A stretch of DNA of 52,849 bases from Actinomycetes bacterium (GCA_023336815.1 JAMBLJ010000054.1:1-52849), one strand, 5' to 3'. Positions 74 through 32,149 are shown, numbered from the stretch's first letter. Translations and numbers: made by a program. Notes: generated from the letters alone by a model not told the origin.

Positions 74-496
74 ATGAGACGGACACTGGACGGACATCTC
101 GGTGACTGGGTAGGTACGTGGTCGACCTGGCTGCAGCCAGACGTTCTCTACGACGTGTCTTCCCTGGAACTGTCGGTCGTTGAACAAGACGACGGATGGA
201 TGTTGTCGTACGAGGGCCACATTGCTTCAGATCACGCAGCCGGATCTATGCACTACCGCTTCGATGTGTCATCGAGTCGGATCACCTGGATCGATTCGTG
301 GCACACCGATGGTCAAAAGAGCGAACTCATCGGTATCGGAGACGATCCTGCGTTCTATGCCTACACCGACGGGTCCGATCCCTGGGGTTGGACGATCGAT
401 GTCGAACCCCGTGAGGATCGCCTGCTCATCACACACAGCAACATCCCACCAGGTGGTCGTCCGACGCGAGCGGTATCAGCGCGCCTCCGCCGCTGA
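74..496 (+). CDS. Hypothetical beta-rich protein, DUF1579-like
   Basis: 140-aa ORF with WIDSWHT and WGW motifs; TACGCT 6 nt before the ATG (leaderless layout). Confidence 0.6.
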   Translation: MRRTLDGHLGDWVGTWSTWLQPDVLYDVSSLELSVVEQDDGWMLSYEGHIASDHAAGSMHYRFDVSSSRITWIDSWHTDGQKSELIGIGDDPAFYAYTDGSDPWGWTIDVEPREDRLLITHSNIPPGGRPTRAVSARLRR

Positions 497-718
497 CGCC
501 AGTCCGCCTTTCAAGGGGGACTGGCGAGTCTTCGAGTGAGGGGGATGGGAACCCGCGTTGGTCCAAGTTCTCGGAGTTGCGCAGCAACTCCCGAGGAACG
601 CCCTTGGCGTTCCCGCTCTGTCTTTCGAGCGCAACCAGCCTTAGCCGGATGGCGCGAGTTCCCATCCCCCTGCGTCACTCCTGCGTCGTTCTGCTGTCCC
701 CCTTGAAAGGGGGACTGG
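497..718. repeat. Composite BIME-like element: inverted pair of ~60-bp palindromic units (497-557, 653-718) around twin-hairpin copy B
   Basis: Both arms read CCAGTCC(G/C)CCTTTCAAGGGGGAC...GAGTGA...GGGGGATGGGAAC(C/T)CGCG on opposite strands. Confidence 0.8.
573..616 (+). repeat. Twin-hairpin REP-like dispersed repeat, copy B
   Basis: GGAGTTGC-gca-GCAACTCC followed by GGAACGCC-ctt-GGCGTTCC: two perfect 8-bp stems. Confidence 0.85.
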
Positions 719-2144
719 GGTTGTTCGCTCGATTGCGCAGAGTTGATCGCACGTCTGTGATGTCCGCAGGACACGTCTTTGATGCCTTCCAGTAGCACCA
801 GCCGGTTGGAAGAAAGAACACCTGGAACAACGAGAGGCCAACTGCGAGGTTGTATGGAGCAGGGATCGATCGGTTGAGGACCTGGGCTGTGACCGTCGTG
901 AGGCCGGCACCGGTCGCTCGACCAACACCGTTCACGAGGTACCCAACTCCAAAAACGGTACCCCTGTGTTCGGGTACGTTCACATCAGAGATCAGAGCGA
1001 ACCAGTTGGGAGAGTCTGCGGAGGTCAGCGCGAGTGCGACGATCGCGGACAGGAACGCAGCAGCTACCCATGGATTCGTCGCGATCGACGATAGGACCTC
1101 GCCGAGGAAAGTCAACGTGCTCGCACCTTCCGTGACTTCGAGTCCACGGAGAGGGATCCAGAAGAAGATGAGAAAGAAGGGGATGGCTCCGAGAATTCCG
1201 ATGGCAGAAACGTATGCCCGACCTGACAGATTGCGGTGCTGCCACCGATCCCCGATATGTCCAGCCAGAATGGAGAACAGCGCACCGATCGAGAACATCG
1301 CAGCGAACAGGCCACCAACCTGTTGCCCGGTTGCTTGTGAATATCCCTCCGCGATGACCTTCTCCTGATAGAGAAGCGGAACCCAGATGAGCGATCCGTA
1401 TGCGATCTGCGCTGTGAGACCCTGAAGGACGAGCCACCGATTGGTCCGAACATCCGCGAGTTCGTGCAGCTGTGACGGATCGATGTCATAGTCGTAGGTC
1501 TCGCCGTCGGCGTAGAGATCGGCGAGTTCGGGTTCGCTGAATCCCCTTGGCGGATCGAAGGCGAGAAGGAACAAGATCGAGAATGAGAATCCTGACACTG
1601 CGATGATCAAGAAGGGAGCACGTGAATTGACGGCACCTGTCTGGGATGCAAGCAGGCTGCCGATAAGCGTGCCGATTCCCTGTGAGAGACCCCAGAACGA
1701 CATGGCGAGCCCTCGCCTCTTCGGCGCAACGAAGTCTGAGACGACCGAGAACCCCACAGCAGCGATGGATCCGAGACCGATCCCTGCGACCACCTGCAGA
1801 GCGAACAACACGCCGAATGAAGTCGTGAACGCACTCATCGCCATCGCTATCGACCAGATGAGCGTGCCCCATAACAGCAGTCGCTTGCGGTCCCGTTGAT
1901 CAGCCAGGTATCCCCAGCCGACGGCGGTGACCGCCGTCATCAGCACCTGTGCACCGGTGAGCGCACCGAGTGCAGCGGTGCCGACACCATACGACTCGCG
2001 GAGCTGTGGGATCATCGAAGGGATGAGCGCAATGGCAGCGTTGTCGAGCGACGCAAGCACGATGAACACAACGATCGTGTACACAACGTGGACTGGACCT
2101 CCCCACCACGACGTGCGGCGCGTATTCGCCCTGCTCGATGTCAC
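675..2144 (-). CDS. MFS transporter
   Basis: 489 aa, about 12 hydrophobic segments, motif-A-like GYLADQRDRK and GHIGDRW. Confidence 0.9.
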   Translation of the reverse strand: MTSSRANTRRTSWWGGPVHVVYTIVVFIVLASLDNAAIALIPSMIPQLRESYGVGTAALGALTGAQVLMTAVTAVGWGYLADQRDRKRLLLWGTLIWSIAMAMSAFTTSFGVLFALQVVAGIGLGSIAAVGFSVVSDFVAPKRRGLAMSFWGLSQGIGTLIGSLLASQTGAVNSRAPFLIIAVSGFSFSILFLLAFDPPRGFSEPELADLYADGETYDYDIDPSQLHELADVRTNRWLVLQGLTAQIAYGSLIWVPLLYQEKVIAEGYSQATGQQVGGLFAAMFSIGALFSILAGHIGDRWQHRNLSGRAYVSAIGILGAIPFFLIFFWIPLRGLEVTEGASTLTFLGEVLSSIATNPWVAAAFLSAIVALALTSADSPNWFALISDVNVPEHRGTVFGVGYLVNGVGRATGAGLTTVTAQVLNRSIPAPYNLAVGLSLFQVFFLPTGWCYWKASKTCPADITDVRSTLRNRANNPSPPFKGDSRTTQE

Positions 2145-7920: not shown

Positions 7921-7997
7921 CGTGTTGTGTGAAAGTTCCCCGTGGGATGTTTTCGCGGCCCGACGACCGACGGGCACTCCATAGACCAGCGCTTCGG

Positions 7998-9233
7998 TCA
8001 CGGCTGGGATGTGATCCCCTCGTAGAGCTCGAGAAGCCGCATCGTCGTGGTGTGCCACGAGAACTTCTGACTGTACGCAACGCCCCCTTGCCCGAGACGC
8101 TCGGCGAATGATCCGTGTTCGAGTATCGCCGCTATCGCCGACGCGAACGCTTGAGGATCGTGGTCATCGACGAGCAATCCTGACTCGGATGCGTTGATGA
8201 CGTAAGGAAGCCCTCCCGCATTCGCTGCCACGACCGGGATACCACAGGCTTGTGCTTCGGCGGCGACGAGTCCAAAGGACTCGCTACGCGATGGAACGAT
8301 GACAACCTCGCTCGCGCGGTAGTGATCCGCGAGCGAGCTGTGTGGCACGGGTTCGAAGTACCTGATCCGATCGGCTACTCCAAGCCGTTCGGCGGATATG
8401 TGACATCGTGCGAGTTCTGCCTCGCCGTCTGGTCCGCTAGCGCCACCGATGATATGCAGGGTCGTTGGTCCCGTGTCATCGGCGAGTATCGCCGGTATCT
8501 TTCCGAATGAACGAACGGCGAGATCGGTGCCCTTGTGGGACTGGATCCTCCCAGCGAACAGGATTATCCGCTCGTCCCCGAAACCGAGTTTGGTCTTGGC
8601 GTCGGATCTGCTCCCTGGCGAGAAAACGGAGTGATCAACACCGGGTGGAGACACACAAAGGCGCTCGGGTGAGGCGCCATAGTGTTCAAGGAGGTCATCG
8701 AACTCGTAGGGCGTTGATGCGATAACGCAGTCGCTGCGCTCGATCACCTCCTGCTCTGTCAAGAGTCGGTGTGAGCTCGAAAGGGGCTCGTCCGTGCCAC
8801 GTGTCGCATCCTTGACCTTGCCCAGAGTATGGAATGAATTCGCGAGCGGAATTCCGAGGGCATCTTTGAGCCGCACACCGCAGCGACCGGACAGCCAGTA
8901 GTGGCTATGGACAAGGTCGTACGTTCGACCGTGGGACCTGATCCACTTCTCGACCTCGCGAGCGAATTCAGCGGCGTACAGCCTCATTTCTGTGAGCGAT
9001 ATCCGTTCAGCGGGACCCGTCTCGATCTGGACGACGCGGTAGCCAGGCATGACCTCGGTGACGGTGTCTGATTCGGATTCCGATCGTCGGGTGAACACGG
9101 TCACGTCGACGTTCGACGCAGCCATCGTCCGGCTGAGTCGATCGAGGTACACGTTCATACCGCCCGCGTTACCTATTCCTGGTTGGATCAGAGGTGATGT
9201 GTGCATGGCGATATAGGCCACCGAAGAGATCAT
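7998..9233 (-). CDS. mshA: D-inositol-3-phosphate glycosyltransferase (mycothiol biosynthesis, GT4)
   Basis: MHTSPL..PG.GNAGGMNVY, HSHYWLSG, GRIQ..KG, ESFGLVAAEAQACG. Confidence 0.85.
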   Translation of the reverse strand: MISSVAYIAMHTSPLIQPGIGNAGGMNVYLDRLSRTMAASNVDVTVFTRRSESESDTVTEVMPGYRVVQIETGPAERISLTEMRLYAAEFAREVEKWIRSHGRTYDLVHSHYWLSGRCGVRLKDALGIPLANSFHTLGKVKDATRGTDEPLSSSHRLLTEQEVIERSDCVIASTPYEFDDLLEHYGASPERLCVSPPGVDHSVFSPGSRSDAKTKLGFGDERIILFAGRIQSHKGTDLAVRSFGKIPAILADDTGPTTLHIIGGASGPDGEAELARCHISAERLGVADRIRYFEPVPHSSLADHYRASEVVIVPSRSESFGLVAAEAQACGIPVVAANAGGLPYVINASESGLLVDDHDPQAFASAIAAILEHGSFAERLGQGGVAYSQKFSWHTTTMRLLELYEGITSQP

Positions 9234-23197: not shown

Positions 23198-24817
23198 TCA
23201 GCCTTCGTTCGAAGCTTCGACGAGGCCACAGTCGATCTCGGCGTCAACGAGGTCCTGACCACCGAACTGGACACGTTCATAGAGAGACACAGCGGCGAGT
23301 TGTTCCTCTGAGAGAGATGCCGCGAAACCAGGCATCAATCCGACGCCACCCACGGGTTTCTGGTTCTCTCCATAGGTCGGGTCTGGCCATCCGGCTGTTC
23401 CGATGCCTACCCATTCGATCTGTGTTGCGCATTGACCGGCGGGGAAGGTCTCGAGGACCGCTCCTGCCGTGAACGCTGGGCCTACACCACCTGTACCGTC
23501 AGCATTGTGACACGCAACGCACTGTGCGTAGATGGCACCGCCGGAGGCGAAATAGTCAGCGGTCGTCTCCCCGTACGGGCTCCCGTCACAGTTGACGGCC
23601 TCGCCGGTCGCAGGATCGACGAGAAGTTGTCCGCCCGATCCGCAGTCGGGTCCGTTCGGTGAGACGAGGATGTAACCAACGGCGAGCAGTGGGATGAGGA
23701 GGAACGCTGCGAGAAGCCACTTCGGATACCCGCCCTGTGCCGGTGCAGCCTCGTCGGCTTCATCGCCAGTCGGACCCTGAGCTCTATCCGTCGTGGGTTC
23801 GATCACTTCGACGTCATCCCCGGTGTTCGGGTCCGGTTCTTCATCTGACGGTCCAGACGTATCCTCTGTTGCTGGTTCTGGCGCAGATGGGGGTGCTGTC
23901 GAAACGGCTCCCGGATCCACTCCTGCCCACTCCGCAAGTACGGCTTCGACGGATTCACCCGTCTTCTTAGATCGTGCTTCTGCTGAGCGTTGGGCGAGTG
24001 AGGCTGGCATGCCTTTGACTTCCGCGACCTGTGCGAGCAATTCGTCCATGCTCATCGCTCCAACGGCAACAGCTGCAGCGGCCGCTACTGGAGCGGGTGC
24101 GACGGCATCTGGTTCGACTGGCGGTTCAGTGGCCGCTCCTGGGTCCACTCCTGCCCACTCCGCAAGTACGGCTTCGACGGATTCACCGGTCTTCTTGGAT
24201 CGTGCTTCTGCTGAGCGTTGGGCGAGTGAGGCTGGCATGCCTTTGACTTCCGCGACCTGTGTGAGCAGTTCGTCCATGCTCATCGCACCTACGGCGACGG
24301 CGGCAGCAGCCGCAGTGGCGACGGGGGCGGGTGTGGCCTCCTCCGGCTCGGCTGGTGGCTCGTCCTCCTTCACAACGTCTGGTTCCCCGGATGCAACGGG
24401 TGCTGGAGTCCTTGCTGACACGAGTTCATCGAGATCGATACCCGCCCAATCCGCGAGAACTGAGTCGAGGGTCTCTCCGGCATGGGTGGCTCGAGCCTGT
24501 GCTGACGAGAGGATGAGTTTTGGAGGCATGCGCTTTGCCTCGGATGCGAGTTGGACGAGCTCATCTGTGGTTACACCGGTCGGTACCGACGCAGTGGCGA
24601 GAGCGGGTGTGTCAGGTGTAACCGGTGGTTCGGGTTCAGCTACTGGAGCGGTTGTCACTTCAGGCTTGGACGCCGATGTGGACCCTTCGCCAAGCCATTC
24701 CTGGAGAACCTGTTCGATGGTCGAACCCGTCTTGTCGGCTCTGGCCTGTGCAGATCGCTCGACGAGGGACGCTGGCATCCCTCGCATCTCAGCGACCTGT
24801 TGGAGAAGTTCGTCCAT
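23198..24817 (-). CDS. Membrane-anchored monohaem cytochrome c with four N-terminal ~43-aa repeats
   Basis: Four xDELxxxxxExxxMPxxL...ARxxxxGxxxxxVLxxWxG repeats, one TM, CVACH, MPGF. Confidence 0.85.
   Translation of the reverse strand: MDELLQQVAEMRGMPASLVERSAQARADKTGSTIEQVLQEWLGEGSTSASKPEVTTAPVAEPEPPVTPDTPALATASVPTGVTTDELVQLASEAKRMPPKLILSSAQARATHAGETLDSVLADWAGIDLDELVSARTPAPVASGEPDVVKEDEPPAEPEEATPAPVATAAAAAVAVGAMSMDELLTQVAEVKGMPASLAQRSAEARSKKTGESVEAVLAEWAGVDPGAATEPPVEPDAVAPAPVAAAAAVAVGAMSMDELLAQVAEVKGMPASLAQRSAEARSKKTGESVEAVLAEWAGVDPGAVSTAPPSAPEPATEDTSGPSDEEPDPNTGDDVEVIEPTTDRAQGPTGDEADEAAPAQGGYPKWLLAAFLLIPLLAVGYILVSPNGPDCGSGGQLLVDPATGEAVNCDGSPYGETTADYFASGGAIYAQCVACHNADGTGGVGPAFTAGAVLETFPAGQCATQIEWVGIGTAGWPDPTYGENQKPVGGVGLMPGFAASLSEEQLAAVSLYERVQFGGQDLVDAEIDCGLVEASNEG
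23916..24286. repeat. Intragenic near-identical direct repeat, 143 bp, period 228 bp
   Basis: 23916-24058 versus 24144-24286, few substitutions. Confidence 0.9.
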
Positions 24818-24821
24818 TGCG

Positions 24822-26720
24822 CTACCTCAGCGTCTCGATGTAGGTGACAAGTGCGTCGATATCCGAATCCGATAGGTACGAGTACGACGGCATGGTCGAC
24901 CACGAACGTGCGGCCCTGGGATTGATCAGATGTGGCCCGATCGCATCGACGTTGAAACCCTCACGGGAAGCAAGATGCATCAGGTCCGGTCCGAGACGGT
25001 AGGCGCCGAGTAGCACCGGATTCTCATGGGCATAGTCGCCAGCGAGCGATACCGCGCCGAGACCAACGTCGCTCGCAACGGGTCGCACCTGTTGCGTATG
25101 ACACTCGGCGCAGCCCTCGGAAACGTAGAGGTCGCGACCGATCGATGCTGCAGAACCATCGGCGTACGTTCGCTCGGTGTCAGCCAGCAAGGTCGACTCT
25201 GCGTCCGTGCTGTCGACCATCGGAAGAATGGCCGTGAACATTGCGGCGAAGAGCCACACCGCAACGACACCTCTGGTCAATCGTTTCCACGTTGCATATC
25301 GTTGCTTGCCGGAGAACTCGAGGTCATAGGCGGCGTGTCCGTCCGGGACCGCAAGGTCTTCGTCGTTGCGGCTTCCCACGCGAACGAGGAAGATGATCTG
25401 GGCGACCGTGAAGACCGCAATCGATGCAGCCGTGACCCATAGAAATGGGTACACCGTGTCAGCGGTGACCTTCCAAGCCGGACCCCAGTTCGCGAAGTTC
25501 TGGCTTGTAGGACCAGCGGCCCAGGAAAATCCGACGGCGACTCCACCCATGAGGAGTGCTGCGACAGCACCAGTGAGCCCGGTGAGCGACCACGCGAAGT
25601 GGAAGCTCGACCCGGAGGATGACCCTCCGCTGAGCACTCGATGTCCTGCGAATATCGCAAAGGACACGCCACCCAGTACCACGAGCAACTGCAGCGCCCG
25701 TACCCAGGGGGAGAATTGCACGATGCTGCTCGTCGCTGGCCACGTCAGGAGCAGATTCACGGCAGTCGTGGCGACGAAAGCGAGACCGCCTACGGTCGCG
25801 TAGCGCAAGGATGCCTTGTCGCCGACACTCGCAATGCGACCCTTGAGGAGCAGTCCAAGGTCCGTGACGATCACGAGAGTCGGAACGATCGCTCCGATCG
25901 CAAAGGCAATACCGATACTTTCGAACCAGTTCGGTGCCGGTGAGAAGATCAAACGGGTCGCACTCATGAATGACCACACCAGGATCAGTGACCAGAAACC
26001 CAGGGCCGCCAGTGGGCCAGCTTCGGTTGGGTCGGACCCGCTGATGTGTCCGAATACAAAGTACAACAGTCCGACGGCCGCCGTGATCATGAACAGTGTG
26101 AGTCCTGCACTGCCGAACGCCCCAACAACAGCCCCCGATGTACCTGCTGGTGCGGGCAGGATCGCTGCAAGTGCGGTGAGTGTGAGCAGAATCGGTGCAG
26201 CTGTTAGGTACCAGCCAGCTGTACCAAGTCGATCACGGTTGGACCGTGCGGTCGCTGTGATCGACATCGTGGCGAGCAATGCTCCGATGGCAAGAAGCGC
26301 ACGTGACCATATCGGTGCCTCAAGACCGGTGATCCCGCTGTTGAGACCGAACAGGATGCCGGCGGCGCCGCCTGCGCTCGCGATAACAAGGGCGACGAGG
26401 GAGGCCAGAGCGAGGGCGCTCCTCTCAAGGGGGTTGTTCGTGATCTTTGAAAGGGCGAAATAGCTGACTCCGAGAAGCCCGATGACTGCCCAGCCATACG
26501 TGAGAAGTAGACGACTTGCAGGGGCGATTCGACCGTAGCTCGTAAAGGCGTACGTTGACGCAAGATCCGGAAGTGCGATCTGGAACAGGGCCAGTGACGA
26601 TCCGGCGAGACCGGTGACAAGGAGTATCGCAGCCACGACGAGATGTGTACGCGCTGTCCGTGTGCTTGTCTCTTCCACTTCGGCACTCTGTACGTCGTTG
26701 GGTGAAGTTTCAGCCGTCAC
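24822..26720 (-). CDS. cbb3-type oxidase CcoN-like domain (His ligands absent) fused to a CcoO-like cytochrome c
   Basis: About 12 TM following the CcoN motif order; C-terminal GRDLYVSEGCAECHTQQVRP, RLGPDL, STMPSY; AGGAGG RBS. Confidence 0.8.
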   Translation of the reverse strand: MTAETSPNDVQSAEVEETSTRTARTHLVVAAILLVTGLAGSSLALFQIALPDLASTYAFTSYGRIAPASRLLLTYGWAVIGLLGVSYFALSKITNNPLERSALALASLVALVIASAGGAAGILFGLNSGITGLEAPIWSRALLAIGALLATMSITATARSNRDRLGTAGWYLTAAPILLTLTALAAILPAPAGTSGAVVGAFGSAGLTLFMITAAVGLLYFVFGHISGSDPTEAGPLAALGFWSLILVWSFMSATRLIFSPAPNWFESIGIAFAIGAIVPTLVIVTDLGLLLKGRIASVGDKASLRYATVGGLAFVATTAVNLLLTWPATSSIVQFSPWVRALQLLVVLGGVSFAIFAGHRVLSGGSSSGSSFHFAWSLTGLTGAVAALLMGGVAVGFSWAAGPTSQNFANWGPAWKVTADTVYPFLWVTAASIAVFTVAQIIFLVRVGSRNDEDLAVPDGHAAYDLEFSGKQRYATWKRLTRGVVAVWLFAAMFTAILPMVDSTDAESTLLADTERTYADGSAASIGRDLYVSEGCAECHTQQVRPVASDVGLGAVSLAGDYAHENPVLLGAYRLGPDLMHLASREGFNVDAIGPHLINPRAARSWSTMPSYSYLSDSDIDALVTYIETLR

Positions 26721-26938
26721 GAGCCGGCGTCCTCCTGGTGCGGTTGTCTTCCGTCGTCCTGTGCAGGCGGTGAAACTCTAGCCGCGACGTTGGAGTCAGC
26801 AGTCATCTGCGCTGGAGTTTCTGGCGTGTGCGCGAGAATTGTTGCCGAGATGCCGACAAACTGTCGCGACTCCGACTTGAATAATCGGAGACAACGTACA
26901 CGGCGTACAATGCACGCCCAACATGCAAGGGAAGATTC

Positions 26939-27523
26939 GTGAACGGACGTAGACAGATCATCGCGGGCGTCGCTTTGATCCTGATCGGCCTTGTTGTAAC
27001 CATTGGTGCATCGGTTGTAGTGCACATGGCGGAGGCCCCCGAATTCGACGACCTTGGCCGCGAGCTGTTCGCGGGTGTTCCCAGGGGATGGCAGGTCGCG
27101 ACGCTTGCTCAGATCGTCGCCCTCGGCGGTGTGATCATCTCGCTTGCCGGTGCTACATACGGGTTCTTGTGGCAACAACCTCTGACATGGGCGCGGGCAA
27201 TGCTCGGTGCGCTGCTTTTCGCTTCCCTGATGTTCGTTATCTTTGCGATTGTCCCGAATCAGTTCCTGACGCTGACACAGGCGACGCTGGAATGGACACC
27301 ACAGAAAACGTTCCTTGTGGTCCCTCCCATCGTGGCGTTGAACAACGAGATCTCGCTTTCCTATGCAGCGCTCAAGGACATGATCTCGGCCGGGTATGCG
27401 ACAACGATGCTGATCCTCATTCCGGTCATCATGTACAAGTGGCAGGAGCGTGCGAAAACTCAGGACGCCCCGAAACCAGATCCCGTATCTGACTACGGCA
27501 GACCCCTGCGCGTGGATCGCTGA
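26939..27523 (+). CDS. Hypothetical 4-TM protein, first gene of the bc operon
   Basis: 194 aa, hydrophobic, C-terminal SDYGRPL; coupled to the ferredoxin gene. Confidence 0.75.
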   Translation: MNGRRQIIAGVALILIGLVVTIGASVVVHMAEAPEFDDLGRELFAGVPRGWQVATLAQIVALGGVIISLAGATYGFLWQQPLTWARAMLGALLFASLMFVIFAIVPNQFLTLTQATLEWTPQKTFLVVPPIVALNNEISLSYAALKDMISAGYATTMLILIPVIMYKWQERAKTQDAPKPDPVSDYGRPLRVDR

Positions 27524-27966
27524 TGGCGAAGGAAGTCTGGCTCGAAACGCCACCGATGCGGGATGACTATCAACTCGCGCTCGTGGACACGGAGTACATG
27601 AACGCGGCTGTGAAACCCAAGCAGTTCATCCACATCAATGAATCCGAATGCATTCTGTGTGCCGGATGCGTCGACATCTGCCCCTGGAAATGCATTCAAC
27701 TTCTCTCGCCAGATATCGTCACCGAAGCGATTGGTGTTGACGACCCGAACGACAACGAGGAGAACGGCGCCGTGTTCGTCATCGACGACACCGAGTGCAC
27801 CAGATGCAAGTTGTGCGTCGATCGATGTCCCACCAACGTCATAACCATCGGTAAATTCGGTGGTTCATTGGTAGCCAGTTCTGATGCGTTCGACGCTGCA
27901 CCGTGGGAATACGATTCTGGCACAAGAGATACCAAGAGTGGCGTCGCGTATGGCGTGCGCTGGTAG
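27523..27966 (+). CDS. 2x[4Fe-4S] ferredoxin
   Basis: CILCAGCVDICP and CTRCKLCVDRCP. Confidence 0.9.
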   Translation: MAKEVWLETPPMRDDYQLALVDTEYMNAAVKPKQFIHINESECILCAGCVDICPWKCIQLLSPDIVTEAIGVDDPNDNEENGAVFVIDDTECTRCKLCVDRCPTNVITIGKFGGSLVASSDAFDAAPWEYDSGTRDTKSGVAYGVRW

Positions 27967-27981
27967 GAAGAGGAGAACGAG

Positions 27982-28758
27982 TTGGTAGACGGCAACGGCA
28001 GGACGAGCGTCAAGGACGCTGTCACCGGAATGGGAGACCATGTCCGGAACTCTCAGGTGTGGAACTCGATCTTCCGCCCTGGTTCGCCGATGCGTGCGGA
28101 TGGGGGAGACTCGCCGAGGAACCGTGCCTACGTTGTCATGAACAACGTTCTCTACCACCTGCATCCAGTCAAGGTAAAGCGACATGGCGTCCGCCTGTCC
28201 TACACGCTGTGTCTCGGAGGGCTGAGCTTCTTCCTCTTCATCCTTCTGACGGTCACAGGGATCTTCCTGATGTTCTACTACCGACCGACGTCACCCCAGG
28301 CGTACTTCGATCTTCAGGCTCTTGCAACAGATGTAGCGTTCGGGCAACTCGTTCGCAATATGCACAGGTGGGGCGCACACATCATGGTGCTGACTGTGTT
28401 CCTGCACATGGCTCGTGTGTTCTACCACGGTGCGTACAAGCCACCACGGGAATTCAACTGGGTTGTTGGCATCGTTCTGTTGCTGTTGACGCTTCTGCTG
28501 TCGTTCACCGGCTACCTACTCCCATGGGACCAACTCGCTCTTTGGGCTGTCACTGTTGGTTCGAATATGGCTGCGTATACCCCCGTATTCGGCAACCAGG
28601 TGACGTTCGCGCTCATCGGGGGTATACAGATCACCGCGGACACCCTTCTGCGCTGGTACGTGCTTCACGTGTTGTTCCTCCCGTTCATCATCACCATCTT
28701 TATGGCCGTCCATTTCTGGCGGGTCCGTAAAGATGGCGGCATCTCAGGTCCGCTGTAA
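27982..28758 (+). CDS. Cytochrome b6-type subunit (PetB/QcrB-like) of menaquinol:cytochrome c reductase
   Basis: CLGG, MHRWGAH...[17 protein letters not shown]-x14-H. Confidence 0.92.
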
Positions 28759-28767
28759 GGAGACACC

Positions 28768-29625
28768 GTGGCACAGCTTCCAGATCATCTCCTCAAACGG
28801 GCCGCCGAGGCCAGAGCGAAAGCAGAAGGCCGAACGGTCGACGACGTCATGGCTGAGATGAAGGGCGAACCGGCCGCAGCTTCGCCGTCGCCTGCAGCCG
28901 CCGTGACATCGGGTCCTGGCAGGGATCTCGATGCTGAGGCTGCAACGTACGGTGTTCCCCGACCGCTCCTCGAACGATCGATGTTCGCCCGTGCAAGAAT
29001 GGACGGCACGGCCGTACCCGCAATGGCCGGCGCACCTGCAGCCGCACCTGCAGCCACGGCATCCGCAGCAGCGGCTCCCGCGGCCGCTGCGCCGACAGGT
29101 CCGCCACCGGGTGTGAGAACACAACGTCTCCTCACTGTGGTCAAAGCAGGGGCGATTCAGGGCACCACCAAGGAACCCGCAGACAAGGTCAACGTGTGGC
29201 CGCACCTGCTGGCAATCGAATTCGTGGCGTTGTTGGCTATGTCCGCTTTCCTCTTCTTGCTGTCAGCGCTGATGGATGCACCGCTTCTCGAGTTCGCAAA
29301 CTTCAACGAGCAGCCGAACCCATCCAAGGCGCCGTGGTACTTCCTGGGACTCCAGGAGCTGCTCGCGTACTTCGATCCTCAGGTCGCCGGTGTGATCATT
29401 CCTGGGTTCGGTATTGCCGCACTAGCATTTATCCCGTACATCGATCGAAACCCGTCGGTGCGTCCTTCGAATCGCAAACTTGCGATCTCGTTGTTCACGG
29501 TGTTCTTTATGGGTGCAGCTGTGTTGACGATCTTCGGCTCGTTCTTTCGCGGACCGGGCTTTAACTTCGTATTTCCCTGGACCGATGGGATATTCTTTGA
29601 CGACCTGCTAGCGATTCTCGAATGA
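28768..29625 (+). CDS. Subunit IV (PetD-like) with N-terminal repeat extension
   Basis: VWPHLL, PNPSKAPWYFLGLQE, PYIDRNP, 3 TM. Confidence 0.88.
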   Translation: MAQLPDHLLKRAAEARAKAEGRTVDDVMAEMKGEPAAASPSPAAAVTSGPGRDLDAEAATYGVPRPLLERSMFARARMDGTAVPAMAGAPAAAPAATASAAAAPAAAAPTGPPPGVRTQRLLTVVKAGAIQGTTKEPADKVNVWPHLLAIEFVALLAMSAFLFLLSALMDAPLLEFANFNEQPNPSKAPWYFLGLQELLAYFDPQVAGVIIPGFGIAALAFIPYIDRNPSVRPSNRKLAISLFTVFFMGAAVLTIFGSFFRGPGFNFVFPWTDGIFFDDLLAILE

Positions 29626-29632
29626 GGCACCC

Positions 29633-30493
29633 ATGAGCGCCACTGCAATCTTCGTTCTCATCATCCTCGCAGCTGCTGCCATGGTCGTTGTAGCGATCGT
29701 TGCTGTTGCCAGCAGTCGGTCGGACACCGATGGTGCCGCGACGGCAGGCGAGCTGGATCGCAAGGCTGCCAGGGCCGACAAGGCGCGACGCAAGGCCAAG
29801 ATCGAAGTCGCCGCCGCATCCGGCGGTCCCGGCCGAGAGACGACCGTGATGTTGGTCGATCCCGCTGCGGAGTACGAGACCGCAGTACCGCTCGAGGAGA
29901 TCTCCGCCGTGGAATACGGTGTGACAAGACGCAAGTTCTTCAATCGGGCGATAGGTGCCGTTTTCGGTCTTTTCATGTTGCAGTTCGCCCTTGCCGGATT
30001 GGCGTTTTTCTGGCCGAAGCTCAAAGGCGGTTTCGGGACACCGATCAAAGCTGGCGATGTGAGCACCCTCAAGTCAGAGGTGCTCGTTGCTGGAAAGATC
30101 GTGCCCAAGTTCGTTCCGGCTGCCCAAGCCTGGATCGTTCCCTTCGACATGAGCAACCTGGAGGGTTCGTCCTATGAGGAGGTGCCCTTCGTTGTTGTTG
30201 GTGGCGAATCAGACGGCATCGGTCTTATGGCGCTGTGGCAGCGATGTGTCCATCTTGGATGCCGTGTGCCGTCCTGCGAGTCGTCACAGGGGTTCGAATG
30301 CCCGTGCCATGGTTCGAAGTACAACGGCCATGGCGAATATGCGGCTGGCCCCGCACCGCGGAACCTGGATCGGTTCGGCGTATCGATCGACAGCGCGGGT
30401 GAGCTCGTGATCGACACGGGAACGGTTGTGCAGACAGCACGTGCGAAGGTGTACACAGTTGCGTATCCACAGGGTCCGTTCTGTGTTGGTTGA
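29633..30493 (+). CDS. Rieske iron-sulfur subunit
   Basis: Internal Tat motif TRRKFF, CVHLGC, CPCHGS, GPAPRNL. Confidence 0.93.
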   Translation: MSATAIFVLIILAAAAMVVVAIVAVASSRSDTDGAATAGELDRKAARADKARRKAKIEVAAASGGPGRETTVMLVDPAAEYETAVPLEEISAVEYGVTRRKFFNRAIGAVFGLFMLQFALAGLAFFWPKLKGGFGTPIKAGDVSTLKSEVLVAGKIVPKFVPAAQAWIVPFDMSNLEGSSYEEVPFVVVGGESDGIGLMALWQRCVHLGCRVPSCESSQGFECPCHGSKYNGHGEYAAGPAPRNLDRFGVSIDSAGELVIDTGTVVQTARAKVYTVAYPQGPFCVG

Positions 30494-30517: not shown

Positions 30518-32149
30518 GTGATTTCAACAGGTATACATCTAGCGGCACTCGTGCTCGCAACCGGCGAGGACGCCGGAGTGGTGTCGAGCGGTTCAGGGCT
30601 TGGTGTTGGTGCTCTGGCCCTCATGGCCGTGGTCGTTCTTCTCCTCGGTTGGATGGCGTATCTTTACATCAACTCCCGTCGCAGCGCCGCGGCCGCTCAG
30701 GATCCAGCTCCGCCGAACCTGTCTCCCCCTGCCTCGGACGATGAACTCGAGAACCGCAAACTGACACGAGTCCTGCGTGCGGCTCTCTTCGGCAGCGCAT
30801 TGCTTGCTATCGCTCTCCCCTGGTACGCCATCAACGAACCGGATCGTCAAGACACCGCGGCCGAGTCGATCCTCGAAGAAGATGTCGAGGCTGGTGCCCA
30901 CTGGTTCAGTGTCGACGGGTTCGCATGTGCCCAGTGTCACGGTCCTACCGCGGGTGGTGGAGCCGCCCCCTTCACGGAAGCTCGGAGCGGCGTTGATGTC
31001 TCCTGGGCGGTTCCGTCTCTGGACGATGTGCTGTTCCGATACTCCGAAGAAGAAGTGAAGTTCTGGATCGTCTTCGGTCGCGATGGAACCCCGATGCCGG
31101 CCAATGGCCTTGAAGGGGGAGGGGCGATGACGGTCCAGGAGGTCGATCAGACCATCGAGTATCTGAAGTCCATCCAACTCAGTCAGGTTGATGCCTTTGC
31201 TAAGTCAGAGTCGACCGTCGATCTTGCCCTGAAAGCGATCGAAGGCGGAGAAGCTAGGGCACGATCCCTCATCAACCTTCAGCAAGCGGATATCGATGCG
31301 GTGAACGCCGCACCTGACAAGCTCGCGGTGACCGGTTCCTTCGCAGATGATGTCAAGGATCTCCTTCAGGCGCCGGGAACGTGTACAGCTGCATCAGCGA
31401 AGCTCGTGGACACAACGTGCGAAGATCCCGGCGAAGACAGTGATCGGGATGGCCTGACAGATGACGCTGAGAAGGCACTGACAGAAATCGCATCGGTTTC
31501 CATGGAGACTCTCGTTGTTCCCGTCGCATCACAGAACGACGAAGGGATCACCGAATACTCGTTCGAAGCCAATGAGCAGTACGCGTTGAGGTACGACCCC
31601 TTCGTAGCATTCACGAACATCGACCCGGATTCGAGGAACCCCGCACCGGATCTCGACATGGCGGCGGTACTGCTCGAGCACCTCGAGACCGATCTCCTGC
31701 TCGTCGGCGTGACGGCCGATCGTCAGGATCAGTTCCTCGAGGGGTTGAATTCCGGTATGGCCTTTCTCGAGCAGTCTCTCGCTGACCAGCTCTGGAATAT
31801 CGACTACGCGACCGTCGCCACCAACATGGATGTTTCGGAGGCCGATGCACAACGCGGTGTTGGACTCTTCAACTCATATTGTGCGCGGTGTCACACCGGT
31901 GGCTATTCCGCAGGAGCTCCATTCGAACAAGGGGCTGGCACCGGTGCGTGGGGACCGTCACTTCTCGATGGGCGGGCCGAAGGCCAGTTTCCTACCATCG
32001 ATGACCAGGTTGCATTCGTCATGACAGGATCTGACAACGGCGAACGGTACGGCGTCAACGGTCTCGGTACGGGCCGGATGCCCGGATTCGGCCAGGTGCT
32101 GTCCGTCTCAGACATCGAGCTCATCGTGAAGTACGAAAGGACACTCTGA
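30518..32149 (+). CDS. Membrane-anchored dihaem cytochrome c
   Basis: CAQCH...MPA and CARCH...MPGF; N-terminal TMs; start uncertain. Confidence 0.88.
   Translation: MISTGIHLAALVLATGEDAGVVSSGSGLGVGALALMAVVVLLLGWMAYLYINSRRSAAAAQDPAPPNLSPPASDDELENRKLTRVLRAALFGSALLAIALPWYAINEPDRQDTAAESILEEDVEAGAHWFSVDGFACAQCHGPTAGGGAAPFTEARSGVDVSWAVPSLDDVLFRYSEEEVKFWIVFGRDGTPMPANGLEGGGAMTVQEVDQTIEYLKSIQLSQVDAFAKSESTVDLALKAIEGGEARARSLINLQQADIDAVNAAPDKLAVTGSFADDVKDLLQAPGTCTAASAKLVDTTCEDPGEDSDRDGLTDDAEKALTEIASVSMETLVVPVASQNDEGITEYSFEANEQYALRYDPFVAFTNIDPDSRNPAPDLDMAAVLLEHLETDLLLVGVTADRQDQFLEGLNSGMAFLEQSLADQLWNIDYATVATNMDVSEADAQRGVGLFNSYCARCHTGGYSAGAPFEQGAGTGAWGPSLLDGRAEGQFPTIDDQVAFVMTGSDNGERYGVNGLGTGRMPGFGQVLSVSDIELIVKYERTL

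Follow-up and report, generated by a model that had tools for sequence, protein, structure and literature searches.

An unnamed helical module shared by a membrane-anchored cytochrome c and subunit IV of a b6-type complex in the class Acidimicrobiia

Introduction

Why should two membrane proteins of a respiratory locus, encoded in divergent operons, both begin with copies of the same short helical repeat? The question is raised by a 52,849-nucleotide stretch of DNA from an Actinomycetes bacterium (GCA_023336815.1 JAMBLJ010000054.1:1-52849), hereafter the window, in which one operon encodes a membrane-anchored cytochrome c and the other encodes subunit IV of a split, b6-type Rieske/cytochrome b complex. 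The genome that hosts this two-operon locus belongs to the class Acidimicrobiia. An initial reading made from the sequence alone (the sequence-only reading) had picked out the repeat in both proteins and had proposed that it docks the cytochrome c to the bc complex. Here we report that the copies in the two proteins are homologous, describe the predicted fold, conservation and taxonomic spread of the module that they represent, and weigh the tentative view that it serves as a cytoplasmic docking element against other explanations of its function.

Results

Six homologous copies in two proteins

The genome analysed measures 3.0 Mb, and its six-frame open reading frames (ORFs) of at least 40 amino acids form a set of 44,815 sequences. 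When all of these ORFs were searched with a profile of only the four cytochrome c copies, subunit IV was the sole non-self protein matched with E < 0.1 (E 3.1e-6), the next ORF standing at E 0.12; within subunit IV the profile scored 23.8 bits on the first copy (copy A) and 4.9 bits on the second (copy B). Profile A5, whose 30 copies were drawn from cytochromes c, from CcoO-like proteins and from a fourth carrier described below, with none from subunit IV, gave 30.9 bits to copy A of the window's subunit IV (E 3.9e-7) and 19.3 bits to copy B (E 0.0017), both E-values being scaled to 44,815 sequences. In 17 of 17 N-termini of related subunit IV proteins the same profile recovered copy A, and in all 17 also the copy-B type, at 12.7-24.3 bits, with E ≤ 0.01 in 10 of them. 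The six repeats are therefore homologous, as profiles confined to cytochrome c and profiles free of subunit IV both match subunit IV, and the profile match between the two proteins on which the sequence-only reading had staked its claim is significant. Profile searches of the window's own genome gave no module match outside contig C54. The core motif proposed in that reading, P-x2-L-x2-R-x3-AR-x4-G, agrees with the conserved positions over the module copies, and a strict form of the core-helix pattern has two matches in the real ORFs of the genome (cytochrome c and subunit IV) and none in each of three shuffles. The count of four copies in cytochrome c and two in subunit IV also holds, with a unit of about 45 residues and with the subunit IV copies partial.

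The cytochrome c (23198..24817, minus strand) is a membrane-anchored monoheme protein of 539 residues, recognised by its ORF, its Pfam Cytochrom_C match and its layout, in which four N-terminal modules separated by acidic Pro/Ala-rich linkers are followed by one membrane helix and a cytochrome c domain. The Cytochrom_C match over residues 424-513 is marginal (21.8 bits against a cut-off of 21.3); together with the heme-binding CxxCH in the translation at residues 433-437 (23507..23521) it places the protein among class I c-type cytochromes, and its relatives score higher. The single membrane helix lies at about residues 365-385 (23663..23725) in a hydropathy window, and 59-84% of linker residues are Pro, Ala, Glu, Thr or Val. 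Copy 1 (residues 1-45; 24683..24817) scores 93.8 bits with the four-copy profile, a self-match, and its type is kept at the same position in relatives. Copy 2 (residues 83-127; 24437..24571) is a distinct subtype with Ser in place of the helix-2 Arg that is 95% conserved elsewhere. Copy 3 (residues 180-224; 24146..24280) supplied the sequence for structure prediction, and copy 4 (residues 256-300; 23918..24052) is its recent duplicate, the two lying in a direct repeat of 179 nucleotides (23907-24085 and 24135-24313) that is 93% identical at a spacing of 228 nucleotides. All four copies share the strand of the gene. Tandem Repeats Finder reports no repeat in the cytochrome c gene; the period is long and the copies have diverged, and a direct-repeat search finds the copy 3/4 pair only.

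Subunit IV (28768..29625, plus strand) is a PetD-like protein of 285 residues, assigned on a Pfam Cytochrom_B_C match at residues 177-259 (37 bits against a cut-off of 20.7), three hydrophobic segments and the gene order b6, subunit IV, Rieske; NCBIfam ExtQ reaches 58.6 bits on it, under its cut-off of 150. Its N-terminal extension of 117 residues contains both copies. Copy A (residues 2-35; 28771..28872, plus strand) comprises helices 2 and 3 of the module and lacks helix 1, because the subunit IV start codon lies only 10 nucleotides past the stop codon of cytochrome b6. Copy B (residues 52-90; 28921..29037, plus strand) comprises helices 1 and 2 only, with a conserved Asp-Gly-Thr...Pro tail replacing helix 3, and this subtype is conserved in 17 of 17 aligned relatives. 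AlphaFold2 modelled the N-terminus at a predicted local distance difference test (pLDDT) score of 67, with helices at residues 6-20 and 24-32 in copy A and 54-61 and 65-79 in copy B and with the remainder disordered. As a separate observation, a subunit IV ORF from the same genus (L129, G006:C394) has a full cytochrome c-type module before copy B, replacing copy A; this ORF runs off the end of its contig, so the replacement may be an assembly join and not a real swap.

The topology of both proteins would place the modules in the cytoplasm, the location given to them in the sequence-only reading. The cytochrome c has no signal peptide, and its single membrane helix precedes a heme domain that is necessarily outside the cell, so that its N-terminus should be cytoplasmic. 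In known b6-type complexes, subunit IV has its N-terminus on the n-side.

A predicted three-helix bundle outside named families

AlphaFold2 modelling of copy 3 with 32 aligned copies predicts that the full module is a compact three-helix bundle of about 45 residues, with helices at residues 2-13, 17-31 and 35-43 and a mean pLDDT of 97.9. The repeat had been called unnamed, and it does lie outside every Pfam, NCBIfam and PDB sequence match: Pfam-A 2025 and NCBIfam 20.0 have no family over cytochrome c residues 1-360 or subunit IV residues 1-140, the best match of profiles A1 and A2 to PDB sequences has E 0.38, and the ESM Atlas gave no usable match for the module. Relatives carry the public names 'hypothetical protein', 'cytochrome c' or 'mono/diheme cytochrome c family protein', and their only precomputed Pfam families are PF00034 and PF13442. 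Structural searches were similarly unproductive. Foldseek against the PDB returned no match at E ≤ 0.001, its top entries (E 1.9 at best) being designed helical toroids and the c-di-GMP-binding domains of PilF/MshE, and in VIA-align against 48,161 chains the highest Z, 6.3, went to a designed toroid, followed by archaeal Rpa1 AROD and ANTAR domains at Z 5.0-5.6. We leave the fold family unassigned because these Z values fall within the noise that the tool states for small helical bundles.

Two named families deserve closer comparison. The sequence-only reading had likened the repeat to the helices of ribbon-helix-helix (RHH) dimers of the CopG/Arc/MetJ type (RHH_1/RHH_5), and a loose likeness in helix register stands: the Pro-capped helix, Gly-x-Ser/Thr turn and second helix of the module align with helix A, turn and helix B, and subunit IV copy A, in which five non-helical residues precede helix 2 in the AlphaFold2 model, has the element order of an RHH monomer, a short non-helical start followed by two helices. 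A significant family match did not emerge. Pfam RHH_5, whose cut-off is 26 bits, reaches 13.8 bits (E 0.051) on copy A only, the remaining five copies have no RHH match at E ≤ 10, comparison with 25 local RHH domains in hhalign yields a probability of 22.8% for A5 and 6.2% for A3 with the register as expected, and an RHH_1 search of the genome matches two loci on other contigs and neither the cytochrome c nor the subunit IV gene. Full copies, moreover, have an N-terminal helix (residues 2-13) where RHH proteins have a strand that pairs with that of a second chain in an obligate, intertwined dimer, are predicted to be monomeric bundles, and are acidic, repeated and carried on membrane proteins. 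Kinship with RHH proteins is thus not established. The RNA-binding ANTAR domains (EutV, NasR, AmiR, Rv1626) are the best natural structural matches, with three helices and a similar size, and superpose over 45 residues at a root-mean-square deviation of 1.8-1.9 Å with Z 5.0-5.5, which is within the stated noise. They differ in that sequence identity is 4-13%, that no Pfam match accompanies the likeness and that the domain context of the module is entirely unlike theirs, ANTAR domains following receiver or sensor domains in soluble regulators.

The middle helix as the conserved core

Conservation is concentrated in the middle helix (helix 2), whose pattern is P-x-x-L-L-x-R-S-A-x-A-R-A. Over 432 distinct copies the Pro cap is conserved at 98%, Leu at 83%, Arg at 95%, Ser at 83%, Ala at 98%, Arg/Lys at 98%, the next Ala at 92% and the Gly after the helix at 92%, a conservation that, judged from the aligned copies, is wider than a buried face would require. 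The survey of this helix covered the bc loci of named Acidimicrobiales, 80 related loci in all, with Ilumatobacteraceae, Microthrix, Iamia, Desertimonas and acIV among them. In many of these loci subunit IV lacks the folded module yet keeps the middle helix twice, near residue 4 and about 50 residues later, in a form that reads like IPEHLLKR[SA] or IPEHLLKRS. The divergently encoded cytochrome c of these single-helix lineages starts with one copy of the same motif, and the two proteins often share nearly identical first 11 residues. These single-helix forms are basic, combining Ile/Leu/Leu with many Arg and Lys residues. A 13-position pattern for the helix was present in 73 of 80 subunit IV proteins, 47 of 53 cytochromes c, 8 of 24 CcoN/O-type proteins and 20 of 10,815 other ORFs; these 20 include at least nine in which the same motif can be read, on ORFs that are unlabelled or fragments. 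Since the helix is kept where the folded module is absent and is also the most widely conserved part of the module, the shared element is broader and probably older than the folded repeat, with helix 2 as its core.

Distribution and carriers of the full module

Only part of the class Acidimicrobiia has the full module. A search of 1.84 billion representative proteins with a 32-copy profile returned 455 clusters at E ≤ 0.001, of which 277 reach E ≤ 1e-10. In genome tallies, which count the unpublished G027, G038 and G277 (the alignments hold no sequence from those three), the module is present in 39 of 41 close relatives and in 149 of 301 genomes of the class, reaching nearly all families of the window's order; several other families among the 301 genomes have no module match. 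All 65 genomes of a family with genomes of about 1 Mb carry it, as do Candidatus Actinomarina loci, and its retention in genomes so small argues for a function. A phylum-wide sample was positive in 7 of 401 genomes, all seven of them in the window's order.

Architectures were read, as Pfam families at E ≤ 1e-4, on the 150 best of the 455 clusters. A Pfam family was found in 33 and none in the remaining 117, which are mostly short fragments; the 33 divide into 19 with cytochrome c, seven with FixO/CcoO, five with PetD, one with a TFIIS-type zinc ribbon and one with a weak MIF match. The last of these (P0020) was disregarded since the match overlaps the module region, and P0025, P0040 and P0106, also among the 150 best, were set aside as seemingly out-of-frame or read-through gene calls. 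Proteins of at least 200 residues number 65, of which 49 have a predicted membrane helix, and in 48 of the 49 every module precedes the first helix, the exception reading as a faulty gene call. Module copy number per protein ranges from 1 to 7.

There are four membrane-protein carriers: the cytochrome c, a CcoO-like cytochrome, subunit IV and an unnamed protein with 6-7 membrane helices. Where CcoO is a separate gene in relatives, the CcoO-like protein carries one module. The fourth carrier is a protein of about 400 residues with one N-terminal module, a Pro/Ala-rich linker and 6-7 membrane helices, exemplified by L013:2519-3679 (plus strand) with relatives at L014-L020 and L022. Its gene in L013 lies between luciferase-like monooxygenase and 2-hydroxyacid dehydrogenase genes, downstream of a GCS2-type (glutamate-cysteine ligase-like) gene. 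The fourth carrier has no Pfam or NCBIfam match, and in the ESM Atlas it meets only 'hypothetical protein' clusters with scores of at most 0.87. Apart from these membrane proteins, there is a putative gene call of 123 residues from a metagenome (P0099) in which a Glu/Pro/Thr-rich linker connects a full module with a C4 zinc ribbon of the TFIIS type; it has no membrane helix and represents the only soluble architecture seen.

Conservation of individual copies and correlated change

Three ancestral cytochrome c copies are kept by position: the same copy is 75% identical across six genomes, as against 53% identity between different copies within one cytochrome c, and duplication of the last copy has occurred separately in two genera. 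When the helix of subunit IV is compared with that of cytochrome c, pairs from the same genome share 11.39 identities of 21 and pairs from different genomes 10.25 (reached in 0 of 5000 permutations), and in the single-helix lineages alone the figures are 11.56 and 11.0 (0 of 10,000 permutations reach the observed value), permutation counts that overstate significance because the genomes are related. This within-genome similarity offers weak evidence of either correlated evolution or gene conversion of the two N-termini. At one locus (L070), subunit IV (7974-8675, plus strand) and cytochrome c (301-1146, minus strand) share nearly all 21 residues around the motif. This similarity, far over the average of about 11 of 21, suggests a recent gene conversion or exchange of N-termini at that locus.

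Neighbouring genes of the locus

Directly upstream of the cytochrome c gene lies a gene for a CcoN-like/CcoO-like fusion (24822..26720, minus strand; Pfam COX1 59.5 bits, FixO 76.7 bits). Heme-copper oxidases require six conserved His ligands that include an HH pair. The CcoN-like half has five His in its first ~480 residues (26, 225, 360, 374 and 462) with no adjacent pair, and NCBIfam ccoN gives the fusion 24.8 against a cut-off of 583; with too few His and no HH pair, the fusion may not be a working oxidase.

The divergent operon, on the plus strand, begins with a 194-residue membrane protein of no known family (26939..27523) and continues with a 2x[4Fe-4S] ferredoxin (27523..27966) and a four-helix cytochrome b6 (27982..28758) ahead of subunit IV, which is followed by a Rieske protein (29633..30493) and a diheme cytochrome c (30518..32149). 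Homologues of the 194-residue protein, the ferredoxin and cytochrome b6 are present in 68, 73 and 77 of the 80 related loci, respectively. The ferredoxin is soluble and acidic (25 Asp/Glu against 12 Lys/Arg), with no membrane helix or signal peptide, and such a subunit on a b6-type complex suggests electron input or output at the cytoplasmic side. Cytochrome b6 exceeds the cut-off of the NCBIfam ExtP equivalog (304.3 against 290 bits), the b-type cytochrome of a 'selenite/tellurite reduction operon'. In the Rieske protein, an additional membrane helix at the N-terminus is followed by a loop of about 70 residues with a basic, helix-like stretch and then by a twin-arginine-like RRKFF segment; this loop is a possible further cytoplasmic contact site.

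Discussion

The recurrence of one module at the N-termini of subunit IV and its divergently encoded cytochrome c leads us to read it, tentatively and at somewhat less than an even chance, as a cytoplasmic protein-protein docking or tethering element for the membrane subunits of one respiratory unit. In such a mechanism, the modules would dangle on disordered, acidic Pro/Ala-rich linkers at the N-termini of membrane subunits and would bind either one another or one shared site on the complex. The tethered partners would be subunit IV, the divergent cytochrome c and the CcoO-like cytochrome of those relatives that encode it separately, and binding would keep membrane-anchored electron carriers near the bc complex, with multiple copies on flexible spacers adding reach and avidity in a sticker-and-spacer fashion. 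Several results fit docking: the module is limited in this genome to two adjoining membrane proteins, it is found elsewhere on the CcoO-like subunit as well, changes in the helices of subunit IV go along with changes in those of cytochrome c within genomes, and across relatives the carriers are functionally linked membrane proteins.

A number of points weigh against this reading. The correlated change amounts to only about 0.6 to 1.1 residues of 21, with permutation counts inflated by the relatedness of the genomes. The fourth carrier is encoded away from the locus, so the module is not exclusive to it. Many lineages retain a single helix and not a folded domain, which complicates a simple pairing of subunit IV with cytochrome c, and the leucines of the core helix should be buried when the module is folded and free when the helix stands alone, so that one interface for both forms is hard to reconcile. 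On the predicted fold, this contrast between buried and free leucines is the main difficulty for every single model. The basic single-helix forms, furthermore, could bind acidic lipids or an acidic protein, for example ferredoxin. A complex prediction for subunit IV residues 1-95 (17-row alignment) with one cytochrome c module (30-row alignment) scored 0.00 in two runs performed without controls and counts neither way.

Rather than binding each other, the carriers may share a third cytoplasmic partner, either the acidic 2x[4Fe-4S] ferredoxin or another hub, which we consider unlikely while giving it more credence than any other alternative to docking. Having no membrane helix or signal peptide, the ferredoxin must dock somewhere on the n-side; 73 of the 80 loci conserve it, it is strongly acidic, the conserved exposed-looking residues of the core helix are Arg and Lys, and a common partner would explain both the correlated helix change and the fourth carrier. 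The folded modules, however, are themselves net acidic (-2 to -4), and several sites per ferredoxin (at least two on subunit IV and up to four on cytochrome c) look excessive. The same basic character could mark the core as a membrane-surface helix for anionic lipids that would co-localise the carriers through their lipid environment with no protein contact, as the single-helix forms mix Ile/Leu/Leu with many Arg and Lys residues and sit at the end of long flexible tethers by the membrane. We regard this as improbable, since the hydrophobic face is narrow and broken by Arg, the near-invariant Ser and small Ala are typical of helix-helix packing, and in the window's lineage the helix is confidently predicted to belong to a net-acidic three-helix bundle in which its leucines should be buried.

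Equally improbable, in our estimation, is that the module marks its carriers for biogenesis or turnover, to be read by a chaperone, insertase or protease so that co-assembled subunits are inserted or degraded jointly. The first copy begins within the first few residues in every carrier family, and two proteins of one locus open with almost the same peptide, as such a tag would have it; yet internal copies (the second motif of subunit IV and copies 2-4 of cytochrome c) are conserved equally, so a terminus is not required, the N-terminal site is forced by topology as the sole large cytoplasmic part of the carriers, and up to seven copies are hard to square with a tag. We think it very unlikely that the module is a nucleic-acid-binding domain, kin to RHH, helix-turn-helix (HTH) or ANTAR domains, that ties RNA or DNA to the membrane or regulates expression. 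The likenesses behind this idea are the RHH_5 match to copy A at E 0.051, the RHH register in hhalign, the place of ANTAR domains among the best structural matches (Z 5.0-5.5), the one cluster that links the module to a TFIIS-type zinc ribbon, and a distant subunit IV with module repeats (P0008) on which Pfam Xre-like-HTH passes its whole-protein cut-off at 39.5 bits by summing weak matches, none significant singly. Against these stand hhalign probabilities of 22.8% and 6.2%, sequence matches below threshold and Z values of 5 to 6 that lie within noise, the acidity of the modules and of their third helix, a helix where RHH proteins have their DNA-reading strand, and the fact that every carrier but that one cluster is a respiratory or other membrane protein.

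Under the docking reading, the module would join a set of known tethered electron carriers. Membrane-anchored or fused cytochromes c occur at bc complexes as Rhodobacter cytochrome cy, the diheme QcrC of the actinobacterial bcc complex and the subunit IV-cytochrome c fusion of Bacillus. The proposed purpose is the same, in that an electron acceptor is held beside the Rieske/b complex instead of diffusing freely, and an N-terminal membrane anchor and an outward heme domain are features of the window's cytochrome c as well. The tether in those systems is a membrane helix, a periplasmic linker or a gene fusion, whereas the candidate tether here is a repeated, cytoplasmic folded module with homologous copies on a subunit of the bc complex. 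To our knowledge, known respiratory supercomplexes rely on contacts within the membrane or at the periplasmic side. In a bolder form of the idea, to which we assign a low probability lying between those of a shared third partner and a lipid-binding helix, the module would be a sticker that clusters the Rieske/b6 proteins, the cytochrome c, the CcoNO-like complex and the 6-7-helix protein from inside the membrane. Such a sticker has a functional analogy in EPYC1, CcmM (with its SSUL repeats) and CsoS2, the soluble sticker-and-spacer proteins that bind Rubisco in pyrenoids and carboxysomes. Common to both are short helical or small folded units (1 to 7 of them in the module's carriers), disordered low-complexity spacers and a copy number that varies between lineages; the units described here differ in being carried on integral membrane respiratory subunits, and there is no sequence relationship, so the parallel is one of function only.

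Full-text literature searches did not find the module in print, nor did they find a biochemical study of Acidimicrobiia respiratory chains. The matching passages of PMC5600118 make no mention of Acidimicrobiia or of N-terminal extensions, and PMC12008989, in the part of its text covered, lists respiratory complexes with this feature unmentioned. That a membrane-anchored cytochrome c can be retained at a bc complex is already known; retaining it by means of a repeated module on the cytoplasmic side, common to it and subunit IV, would be new.

Conclusions

The 455 clusters with the module make up a new domain family, one to which annotation pipelines at present assign nothing. Shared by subunit IV and cytochrome c, the module offers an entry point to the wiring between a b6-type complex and its electron acceptors, in a complex that has unusual extra subunits in the form of a ferredoxin, a 194-residue membrane protein and a His-poor CcoNO-like protein. 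The Acidimicrobiia are abundant in oceans, lakes, soils and activated sludge, and the relatives concerned include Candidatus Actinomarina, acIV, Ilumatobacteraceae and Microthrix. Should docking prove to be the function of the module, supercomplexes would have a further, cytoplasmic way of assembling.

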